Of a DNA stretch of 40,147 nucleotides, positions 27,678 to 30,064 are shown piece after piece. Location of the stretch: positions 1 through 40,147 of the IMG/VR virus record IMGVR_UViG_3300022741_000089; one strand, written 5' to 3'. A program made the position numbers and the translations under genes. The number at the start of each line of letters is the position of its first letter. Positions within the stretch are counted from its first letter, which is position 1. This stretch comes from a virus (Duplodnaviria; Caudoviricetes). Below the pieces are notes generated by a model. The model did not search any database and had not been told where the DNA came from. It saw only the letters and a list, made by a program, of their open reading frames with translations.

Positions 27678-27704
27678 CAACAAGGGCGCCATTGCGGCGC
27701 CCTT
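27674..27704 (-). terminator. Intrinsic terminator closing the repressor operon
   Basis: AAGGGCGCC-gcaat-GGCGCCCTT stem followed by GTTGCTTT, 3 bp after stop at 27708. Confidence 0.72.
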
Positions 27705-27707
27705 TAG

Positions 27708-28058
27708 TCACTCGGCGTCTGGAACTCCGACACCAAAGCTACCTTGCCCATCCTGACAAGGATAACCAACAACTCCAGCGGTCAGGCCTGGAGTACCTAT
27801 CGGGAAGTGCTGGGTCTGACCAGCCTTAGGCCCCGCGCTGTAGAAGCATGTCGTAGTAAACTCTTTAACGATTCGGTTGTTCACCGTTGCAACCTCCGTT
27901 GACGGGGCTGGAGTTTCGTCAGCGACATCCTGAGTGAAGCTCCTATCCGGTGGGAAGATCTTGTCCCAGTTTGCAAAAAGACTAGTGGCTACAACTCCTA
28001 CAAGACCAATAACGGCGATTGTTATTTGAGTTTTCGAGCTGTCACTCATTGCTGTCAC
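27708..28058 (-). CDS. Single-TM accessory protein (lysogeny operon)
   Basis: ITIAVIGLVGVVATSLFA TM; two Cys in C-terminal domain; visibly more AT-rich. Confidence 0.72.
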   Translation of the reverse strand: MTAMSDSSKTQITIAVIGLVGVVATSLFANWDKIFPPDRSFTQDVADETPAPSTEVATVNNRIVKEFTTTCFYSAGPKAGQTQHFPIGTPGLTAGVVGYPCQDGQGSFGVGVPDAE

Positions 28059-28061
28059 CTA

Positions 28062-28316
28062 TCAGAGAAACCTTCCGATAATGAACACAACAAACCCCAC
28101 CGTGATGGCTGCAGCGCCATACGTCGAGGTAGGAGGATCAGAAGCGATGGCGGTAAGCATCCCGCCAACGATCAACAGAAAACCGACTCCCTCCCAAGCT
28201 CCGCCACGCCTGCCAGCCCTCACTGGCTTGACCGATATCGGTGCGCCGCAACCTGGGCAAGCAGCCGCCTTGCTCGACACCTCACGCTGACACTCACTGC
28301 ACTGAATCAAAGCCAT
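28062..28316 (-). CDS. Zinc-ribbon + 2-TM membrane protein
   Basis: MALIQCSECQREVSSKAAACPGCGAPI then two hydrophobic helices; GAGG SD. Confidence 0.82.
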   Translation of the reverse strand: MALIQCSECQREVSSKAAACPGCGAPISVKPVRAGRRGGAWEGVGFLLIVGGMLTAIASDPPTSTYGAAAITVGFVVFIIGRFL

Positions 28317-28323
28317 GACGTCC

Positions 28324-28884
28324 TCACTGTCCCTCAATCAACCGATACCTGCGCTGATACTCCTCATAGCTCAGCCCAGGAGTCTCCTGCAGCTCACGCA
28401 CCTGCTGCTCACGACTGAGCTGCAAAGGCTGCGAAGTTACTACCGACTCTGCGACAACGGGTGCAAGCGGCACCGTTGAGCCTGGCTGCAGCTCCGCCGT
28501 GATCGCCCTGGGCAGTGCCCACATCGCCCCACTGGCAGGATCGACGATCAGCAGGCCGATCGGGCCACCGATCAGGATGTTGCCCCAATAGGTGCCGCGC
28601 ATACCTGCTGCCAGCGGCACCTCCAGATCGGAATAACCAGGCTTGCGGAACAACACGGTGTAGGCGCCGCGCTTGAAGTAGCCAGCCGATGATTTGAGTT
28701 TGACCAGGTTGGGCGTCACGCCTGATGCAACCACGGCGCCGTCAGCACCACGCCTCACCTCAAACTCAGCGCCCTGCGGCGTACTGGCGATGTTTACATG
28801 GTTGTACCGCTCGCCAACGATGGTCGAGCAACCAGATGTGGCTGCGAGCGCAGCAACAATGAACAGTAATACCCTGGCGTTCAT
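28324..28884 (-). CDS. Lipoprotein with PEGA-like domain and C-terminal SHOCT-like helix pair
   Basis: MNARVLLFIVAALAATSG/C lipobox; IASTPQGAEF, GVTP, KPGY; YWGNILIGGPIGLLIVDP; GLSYEEYQRR. Confidence 0.8.
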   Translation of the reverse strand: MNARVLLFIVAALAATSGCSTIVGERYNHVNIASTPQGAEFEVRRGADGAVVASGVTPNLVKLKSSAGYFKRGAYTVLFRKPGYSDLEVPLAAGMRGTYWGNILIGGPIGLLIVDPASGAMWALPRAITAELQPGSTVPLAPVVAESVVTSQPLQLSREQQVRELQETPGLSYEEYQRRYRLIEGQ

Positions 28885-28909
28885 TCCCTTAACCCCATAT
28901 CCATTGACC

Positions 28910-29284
28910 CTAGCGGCGGCGGGCTTGAATGCACGCTTTGGCAACTTCCCAGATAATTGGCACGAAAAACCACAGCATTCCCGCAGTCACGCCAACGATC
29001 ATGACCGACAGCACGATTGATTCGCTGAATCCCTCAAGGCCTGGCTGAAGACCTCTTGAAATACGCCAGTCGTGCAACCAGCTAAAAACGAACAATACGC
29101 AGATCCCCAGCAGCAGCATCGCTCCATGTGCGAACTGCTCCCTCTCTTGCTGGGTGCAGTGGTTGCAAATGTTCTTATCGCGGTCGATAACTCGCTGCTC
29201 GCATTTCGGGCAAGGCTTGATCTGATTCTCGTAATAGTCCCGCCCGGCGACTCGGTTGTTGCTCCCCTCAACCTGGATATCCAC
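28910..29284 (-). CDS. Zinc-ribbon, 2-TM membrane protein with N-terminal RVAGRDY motif
   Basis: GTG start 4 nt after repressor stop, AAGGAG SD; CPKC...CNHC; two hydrophobic helices. Confidence 0.8.
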   Translation of the reverse strand: MDIQVEGSNNRVAGRDYYENQIKPCPKCEQRVIDRDKNICNHCTQQEREQFAHGAMLLLGICVLFVFSWLHDWRISRGLQPGLEGFSESIVLSVMIVGVTAGMLWFFVPIIWEVAKACIQARRR

Positions 29285-29288
29285 GGTG

Positions 29289-29777
29289 CTACTCCTTCGT
29301 TTCGTTGTAATCCCTTCCAGCGACCCTATGGCCGCTTCCTGAAACCTTGATTCCCTCTTCAGATTGAGGCTTGGCCTTTAGCTTCTTGCCGCCCGTGAGC
29401 AAGTCAGCCAGCAGAGCCTTGCGTGCGCTAGTCGTCAGGCCGCGATAGGCCTCCAGCAGCAGTTGCTCGTCCGGTTTCAAAGCCTCACGCATCGCATAGG
29501 CCGTCACCTCGGCAATGCCAACTGGATCCCGTTGGTACTCCTGCTGATAACGCATCCGGGCTGTTTCGCCCTTCAGCACGTACTCAACGTCGATGGGCAG
29601 ATCCGGGCGGCGTTGTGCCAACGCCCGCAGCTTCTCCTCGGGGAAGGAGTCGCGCTTCTTCCTGTCCGAGAACGCCGCCTTGCTCATTTCCAGCAGTGCA
29701 GCCACGTCCTGATCGCCCGTCACCCCGAGCATGGACTTGAGCCGCATCAGCTGCTGATCGAATTGCTTCATTCTCAC
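29289..29777 (-). CDS. Prophage repressor (CI-like HTH, no S24 peptidase domain) with C-terminal RVAGRDY motif
   Basis: RLKSMLGV..DQDVAALLEMSKAAFSDRKKRDSFP..IDVEYVLKGE HTH; divergent from Ner-like gene (ATG 29771 alternative start). Confidence 0.85.
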   Translation of the reverse strand: MRMKQFDQQLMRLKSMLGVTGDQDVAALLEMSKAAFSDRKKRDSFPEEKLRALAQRRPDLPIDVEYVLKGETARMRYQQEYQRDPVGIAEVTAYAMREALKPDEQLLLEAYRGLTTSARKALLADLLTGGKKLKAKPQSEEGIKVSGSGHRVAGRDYNETKE

Positions 29778-29854: not shown

Positions 29855-30064
29855 ATGGCAACCCAGCAAAAACCCAAGACCGTCGACCAGGTAAAGGCCG
29901 AGTTCAAGGCCAACGGTATGACCGTCACTCAATGGGCGAAAGACAACGGCTTCGAGCCCACCTCCGTTTCCCAAGTGCTCAACGGCTTCGCCAAGGGCAA
30001 CTACGGCAAGGCCCATGACATCGCCGTCGCACTTGGCATCAAGGCTCGCGCAGCAGCAGCTTGA
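29855..30064 (+). CDS. Ner/Cro-like DNA-binding protein (BcepMu gp16-like)
   Basis: GAGGAG SD; GMTVTQWAKDNGF..VSQVLNG..KGNYGKAHDIAVALGIK. Confidence 0.85.
   Translation: MATQQKPKTVDQVKAEFKANGMTVTQWAKDNGFEPTSVSQVLNGFAKGNYGKAHDIAVALGIKARAAAA

Follow-up and report, generated by a model that had tools for sequence, protein, structure and literature searches.

It is an open question by what route a prophage comes to induction when RecA cannot cleave its repressor. At the locus described here, a likely phage repressor ends in nearly the same short peptide with which the product of the next gene begins. The window, a 40,147-nt stretch of DNA, is a complete provirus record with genes for a Mu-type transposase, an AAA protein, Gp27, terminase, and portal. 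Among annotated phages the B3-like ones of Pseudomonas are closest to it; it is a B3-like transposable provirus. The features on which the argument rests are the following.

29855..30064, plus strand: Ner/Cro-like HTH gene, divergent, heading the early operon (phrog_925, E = 5e-27)
29289..29777, minus strand: likely immunity repressor, with HTH, helical C-terminal domain, Lys/Pro linker, and disordered tail (PF07022, AF2, synteny)
29394..29480, minus strand: helical C-terminal domain of the repressor, DEQLLLEAYR type (homologue comparison, AF2 model)
29301..29354, minus strand: repressor tail motif GIKVSGSGHRVAGRDYNE, class A (sequence)
29292..29297, minus strand: AAGGAG, Shine-Dalgarno-like, for the partner gene, within the last two repressor codons (sequence)
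28910..29284, minus strand: partner, 124 aa, with N-terminal motif, CxxC-CxxC zinc ribbon, and two predicted TM helices
29228..29281, minus strand: partner head motif DIQVEGSNNRVAGRDYYE (sequence, homologue alignment)
29156..29212, minus strand: zinc-ribbon-like CxxC...CxxC of the partner (four Cys in homologues)
27708..28944, minus strand: three more accessory genes (likely lipoprotein, 28944-28324; zinc-ribbon membrane protein, 28337-28062; and 28058-27708)
27682..27704, minus strand: terminator-like hairpin (consensus scan only; 2 found versus 2.8 expected in shuffles)

The repressor reading frame (29777-29289, minus strand) ends in GIKVSGSGHRVAGRDYNETKE immediately before its stop codon and, as homologues begin at the ATG at 29771, this is the probable start, giving a protein of 160 aa. 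The gene is taken as the immunity repressor, a likely assignment drawn from gene order, because it is syntenic with the Beetrevirus repressors B3 ORF18 and Fc02 RepC, which occupy the same genome position and share the same helical C-terminal domain. The divergent layout of ner-like gene and repressor is the same in the window, B3, and Fc02 and, as in B3-like repressors generally, an HTH gene divergent from the ner-like gene and upstream of accessory and lysis genes encodes a protein with a short helical C-terminal domain. This domain is common to tailed and tail-less repressors with differing HTH types, and we infer that it serves in oligomerization. Lambda CI contains a RecA-cleavable peptidase domain. 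No S24 peptidase domain was found in the window repressor, where the PF07022 HTH (residues 10–55, E = 3.5e-8) is the sole Pfam match and the AF2 model is all helix to residue 128, followed by disorder with pLDDT below 50 for residues 135–162. A fold search with this model returned nothing at E ≤ 0.001, the best row being the phage 186 repressor, a PDB sequence search gave no significant match, and atlas searches gave one cluster at 0.88 and no usable match.

The partner reading frame (29284-28910, minus strand) opens with a GTG start 4 nt past the repressor stop and begins (M)DIQVEGSNNRVAGRDYYE. The final Lys and Glu codons of the repressor, AAGGAG (29297-29292), double as the Shine-Dalgarno-like sequence of the partner, so that no signal in the protein has to be read into the terminal KE; judging from this overlap, the two genes would be translationally coupled. 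The tail (29354-29301) and the head (29281-29228) are identical at 12/18 residues, and within the RVAGRDY core 6/7 codons differ synonymously, exactly as the earlier note had reported, coordinates included. AGRD[YF] occurs at only two sites in the window in all six frames, namely the tail and the head, and the same holds for the DNA pattern. Among aligned partner homologues NRVAGRDY is invariant in 14/14, as are the four Cys of the zinc ribbon, for which the Zn_ribbon_3 match lies below the cutoff (E = 0.005). The first 12 residues of the AF2 partner model have a pLDDT below 50, and a fold search with the model returned generic helical hairpins only (best Z 7.5).

On the minus strand the repressor is followed by four accessory genes (the partner first), the terminator-like hairpin, and the holin gene; the hairpin would end a repressor-partner-accessory operon ahead of the holin. 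The motif is absent from the three accessory genes at 27708..28944 (minus strand). The likely lipoprotein (28944-28324, minus strand) carries a short C-terminal helix, ..YEEYQRRY.., in common with Fc02 e4, JBD25 gp22, and B3 ORF22, the bodies of which differ, and the 28337-28062 product (minus strand) is a second small zinc-ribbon protein of the operon, with hydrophobic C-terminal segments and without the motif. ORF 30466-30116 (minus strand; phrog_23931) overlaps an early gene, and the matching position in Fc02 is occupied by an overlapping olg1-olg2/gene 10 exclusion locus. One RNA run contains the region, and its contigs cover 29/30 bins over 19 kb, so DNA carry-over is a possible source of this signal.

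A peptide repeated in adjacent genes could lack any function at the protein level and be left over from a duplication in place, from a read-through fusion, or from an element of the DNA itself. As such a relic would have it, the two copies mostly lie side by side and some tails are orphans, four tailed repressors (L179, L203, L217, and L226) being without a matching head in the DNA examined. However, in 34 distinct class A pairs the codons of identical residues are identical in 93/314 cases within a locus versus 2911/10013 between loci, a tail-head synonymous identity of 0.30 against a background of 0.29. Synonymous sites are saturated while the residues are near-invariant, and both motif copies are under purifying selection; the earlier view that selection, rather than a recent DNA duplication, maintains the peptide match is thereby upheld. 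Gene conversion was rejected on the finding that synonymous identity within loci is at the between-locus background, and programmed read-through on the finding that every frame is represented among the offsets between the genes (15/10/10 of 35). As weak evidence in addition, no fused repressor-partner form was found among 7996 longer candidates. The matching also persists across inserted genes, in that a single repressor tail in L131 has two matching heads, one of them two genes further downstream and the other three. The relic explanation is largely refuted and has very little probability left.

The motif lies within the last 30 aa of 78/95 repressor homologues, from at least two HTH families, and the tail core has mostly less than 0.8 bits of entropy versus 2.2–3.0 in the preceding linker of the same 95 proteins. 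For the comparison of tails with heads, 154 loci were gathered by repressor patterns from the HTH region; 11 truncated loci were dropped, the rest were collapsed at 80% identity to 96, and 2 fragments were dropped, leaving 94, a set enriched in class A, as two seed alignments came from class A phages. Summed over these 94 loci, cognate tail/head scores reach 2759 compared with 1865 ± 64 when permuted, a value attained in 0/100,000 permutations. With tails and heads each defined without regard to the own neighbour, both were present in 28 of the 94 non-redundant HTH-anchored loci, a tail only in 8, a head only in 5, and neither in 53 (Fisher 5.8e-12); in the 28 double-positive loci the cognate sum is 1479 versus 936 ± 67 permuted (0/100,000).

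Three recurrent motif types, assigned by eye, were found in addition to singletons: A (NRVAGRDY), B (QxFHGxVGQ..AGDI), and C (NxIQIG..G.V.V). Tails score 34–56 against their own heads and 18–24 against heads of other types, and the match extends to pairs within a type (within-type permutation p = 0.004, 0.0001, 0.03, and 0.008). Sister HTH domains with different, internally matched motifs were observed for L008/L138 (support 99/97) and L028/L034 (100/100). The HTH tree of 46 rows is poorly resolved, with 10/43 branches starred. In a second, quick tree of 38 HTH_3-type loci the type labels cluster by kinship (9 changes versus 13.5 shuffled). Tail and partner are adjacent DNA that can move as one cassette, so a type switch may be a single event. 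A class C DNA pattern run over 244 loci matched only 2 repressor tails. Taken together, these data reveal a tail-head match that is real, selected, and general across related phages, and the co-variation that the earlier note had asked for is present, cognate scores exceeding permuted ones and types being matched within pairs. Tail and head appear to be gained, lost, and swapped together and, on this comparative evidence, they likely bind each other; a direct homotypic contact of some kind is very probable.

Two other readings make use of the same observations. Both copies might have their ligand in a third component (an adaptor, a protease of the host, or another phage protein), with the tail as a degron-like tag and the partner as a decoy or co-substrate. 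The C-terminal tail of the Mu repressor controls its degradation by ClpXP, and the tail found here is similarly terminal and predicted to be disordered. A conserved host target, however, predicts one motif, and the sister phages L008/L138 and L028/L034 have dissimilar matched motifs, which renders a common third component improbable. Alternatively, the contact might be homotypic but no switch, with a simple pairing of β-strands by which the repressor would be constitutively anchored at the membrane, stabilized, aided in repression, or otherwise tethered or buffered, in the absence of amyloid templating. All of the co-variation evidence fits any homotypic contact, and the first 8 positions of class A are slightly basic in tails and acidic in heads (+0.35 versus −1.32), as in a defined heterodimer; transcription of the gene after repC in the Fc02 lysogen, described below, is also in keeping with it. 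On the other hand, an ordinary heterodimer needs no near-identity of its two copies, and the several distinct motif types are all BASS-like in composition and likeness. A constitutive tether is considered distinctly unlikely.

The distribution of the motif was followed with a motif-only profile of 20 positions run on 1.84 billion protein representatives; the profile is short and was built from these systems, so that its 95 matches (44 N-terminal, 45 C-terminal, and 6 internal) could miss distant BASS motifs. N-terminal carriers have a predicted TM helix in 35/44 cases and an HTH in 0/43 scanned, and an HTH was found in 24/39 of the C-terminal carriers scanned, many of the rest being fragments. 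The motif thus occurs almost only at the C termini of repressors or at the N termini of small, mostly membrane, proteins. Among the internal carriers, P0180 is HTH-like and has a coiled coil after the motif, P0186 is a membrane protein in which the motif lies close to the end, and P0115 contains AITGSGNR-type repeats, 16 in tandem.

The class A pair is present in B3 ORF18/ORF20, where ORF20 is annotated as hypothetical, and in Ps59 gp17/gp18. It is also found in the P2-like Escherichia phage 520873 (L123:2809-3420, NC_049344.1), where the headed partner is split into ORFs of 55 and 115 aa that are unannotated in the record. In Fc02, JBD18, JBD25, and PM105, 4/6 of the B3-like phages examined, the repressor stops just past the helical domain and no headed neighbour follows. 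In the Fc02 study the tail-less RepC was shown to give immunity, and transcripts of the gene that follows repC are present in the lysogen (PMC9936078). As Fc02 gives immunity without either part, the pair is an optional module, an add-on outside the core switch. The tail-less relatives are also without a peptidase, so this lack is not peculiar to the module: the description of the repressor in the earlier note as free of a peptidase domain is confirmed (Pfam, AF2) for the protein itself and fails as a mark of the module, Fc02 RepC being likewise without one.

The partner bodies are far less uniform than the heads. The same head is found on unrelated bodies, and the 34 matched partners comprise 10 with a zinc ribbon and TM helices, 18 other TM proteins, and 6 without a predicted TM helix. 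The CxxC-CxxC two-TM body, which the earlier note had proposed as the receptor, is therefore only one of several interchangeable bodies and does not define the receptor. No known sensor domain was detected in partners by Pfam, phrog, and PADLOC profile searches. The partner family phrog_5825 has a weak match to the anti-repressor Ant, phrog_245 (E = 4e-6 and 6e-4). P0158 consists of a head joined to a repressor-type helical domain without an HTH (20 bits), and the partner L120:3001-3243 combines a head with a weakly matched copy of that domain, again without an HTH (hhalign E = 0.002, probability 15%); the L120 partner was not among the matches at E ≤ 1 of a helical-domain HMM run over 16,552 ORFs. 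Both proteins resemble a dominant-negative antirepressor. Elsewhere, L012:790-1458 is a phrog_5825 body with an internal divergent β-type stretch beside a tail-less repressor ORF, and the partner L026:3429-3902, in which the head is only weakly matched, has a single TM segment and, at the C terminus, a KTSC domain.

As described in the BASS survey and its data (bioRxiv 10.1101/2020.01.06.895854; PMC8086366), BASS motifs are biased toward Gly, Asn, Gln, Val, and Ile. In BASS pairs it is the effector that has the motif at its C terminus and the activator that has it at its N terminus. The same placement is found here, with matching motifs at the C terminus of the upstream product and the N terminus of the product of the adjacent collinear gene, and several motif families occur, each matched within its pair, as in the survey. 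Gly, Asn, Gln, Val, and Ile together make up 0.42 of both tails and heads versus 0.23–0.24 of controls, over a length of ∼20–25 aa, and Leu makes up 0.008 of tails and 0.049 of heads versus 0.10–0.12 of controls; Lys is not depleted in tails. By eye, from passages of the supplement, class A resembles BASS cluster C01 (...AGRD), e.g. VSGSGRVYQAGRD, with a spacing from G to AGRD that is one residue shorter, and classes B and C resemble clusters C02/C03; the equivalence of C01 with BASS1 is assumed. Composition, position, and sequence likeness agree in bearing out the BASS-like character first proposed for the motif, and both copies are predicted to be disordered in the monomers. The differences lie in the attached domains: no NLR, TGP, Bell, TIR, or CHAT domain was found by Pfam in the window pair, 30 locus proteins, or the 88 motif carriers scanned, the C-terminal copy belongs to an HTH repressor of a phage, and partner lengths range over 60–260 aa. 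Named hosts are proteobacteria, as opposed to the multicellular Actinobacteria or Cyanobacteria of the BASS pairs. The architecture is built like a BASS pair but lacks the NLR or Bell domain by which membership is recognized.

Short homotypic motifs common to two partners are likewise found in RHIM (RIPK1/RIPK3) and fungal HET-S/NWD2. The RHIM core tetrad is (I/V)Q(I/V/L/C)G, and the class C pairs L035, L138, L140, and L154 contain an (I/V)Q(I/V)G tetrad. The tetrad is, however, absent from the class A motif of the window, and no kinase, HeLo, or NACHT domain is present here. The antiphage pair Bab/Agp of Escherichia coli (BASS11) is also a prophage-borne adjacent pair of a proteobacterium with a shared terminal amyloid motif, but it brings about death via a Bell-like domain and its activator is a 1094-aa TPR-GreA/B-PIN protein; the text available for it mentions no repressor, HTH, or helix-turn-helix (bioRxiv 10.1101/2024.11.07.622273). 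In the literature searched, which covers subscription journals only in small part, no description was found of a motif common to a phage repressor and its neighbour.

For a repressor that contacts a co-expressed membrane protein, the closest functional analogue is lambda cI-rexA-rexB, whose genes, in the parts of the study at hand, are expressed together with the repressor, include one membrane protein, contact CI, and bias the outcome towards lysis, with RexB, the membrane protein, interacting with CI in two-hybrid assays (bioRxiv 10.1101/2021.04.19.439022). No shared peptide motif is described for that system in the same parts, and no Rex match was found in Pfam, phrog, and PADLOC searches of the window pair and partners. 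A rival reading reverses the polarity and takes the partner for an effector in the membrane, serving abortive infection or exclusion. The tail would restrain this effector, or would nucleate it once the repressor comes under attack or gathers on the DNA of an infecting phage. Predicted TM helices in 28/34 partners fit this reading, as does the location of the genes in the immunity operon, which in lambda is the place of rexAB; the known amyloid pairs, so far as the accessible sources describe them, end in cell death, and the L023 partner has a weak PADLOC 2TM-effector match (E = 0.008). PADLOC gave no effector match for 15/16 proteins, window pair included, soluble partners and those combining a head with the helical domain are unfit for a pore, and the polarity would be opposite to that of BASS pairs. 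A defensive effector is considered unlikely.

The explanation put forward instead is that the 18-residue motif is a homotypic tag through which the repressor would be captured by the partner, probably in an amyloid-like stack, and so inactivated, with a shift of the prophage towards induction; it is advanced tentatively, at somewhat less than even confidence. Repressor and partner would be co-expressed in the lysogen, to judge from Fc02, and a trigger may then cluster the partner, whose head would bind the repressor tail directly and homotypically. Tail and head could stack into an amyloid-like β-assembly, and capture of the repressor would cost repression and move the prophage towards induction. 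The proposed direction, with the partner acting on the repressor, is drawn from the BASS polarity, the variable partner bodies versus the constant repressor end, and the antirepressor-like partners. A cross-β form of the contact in particular appears close to an even call. The class A core has charged residues, two Arg and one Asp, at corresponding positions of tail and head, so that an in-register stack must accommodate these charges, and a complex prediction with three tail copies and one head scored 0.02 versus a mark of 0.32, which gives no answer either way. Counted against capture are the four orphan tails, the 4/6 B3-like phages without both parts, the partners without a known sensor domain, and the 6/34 without a predicted TM helix.

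In the accessible accounts, the described amyloid-signaling pairs end in cell death or immunity and not in repressor control. If capture is true, the matched tag would offer prophages a candidate route to induction and would give amyloid signaling an output in transcription. A wider proposal, which we regard as doubtful, is that at least two temperate lineages (Mu/B3-like and P2-like) have wired amyloid signaling to transcription as a prion-like, protease- and SOS-independent induction switch, where swappable BASS/RHIM-like tags would couple interchangeable membrane or soluble sensors to the repressor, a self-templating β-stack would inactivate it, and tag type would set specificity between co-resident prophages. 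The question is testable in phage, B3 having the pair and Fc02 being a natural null. Among the loci, L103:2123-2985 holds two tandem HTH genes and, after them, a single headed partner; both HTH genes end in a class A tail, which in the second has a Cys in place of Arg. The headed genes of L131, ∼560 and 970 nt past the repressor stop, encode tandem membrane partners with class B heads, and a lipoprotein gene lies between the repressor and these partners.
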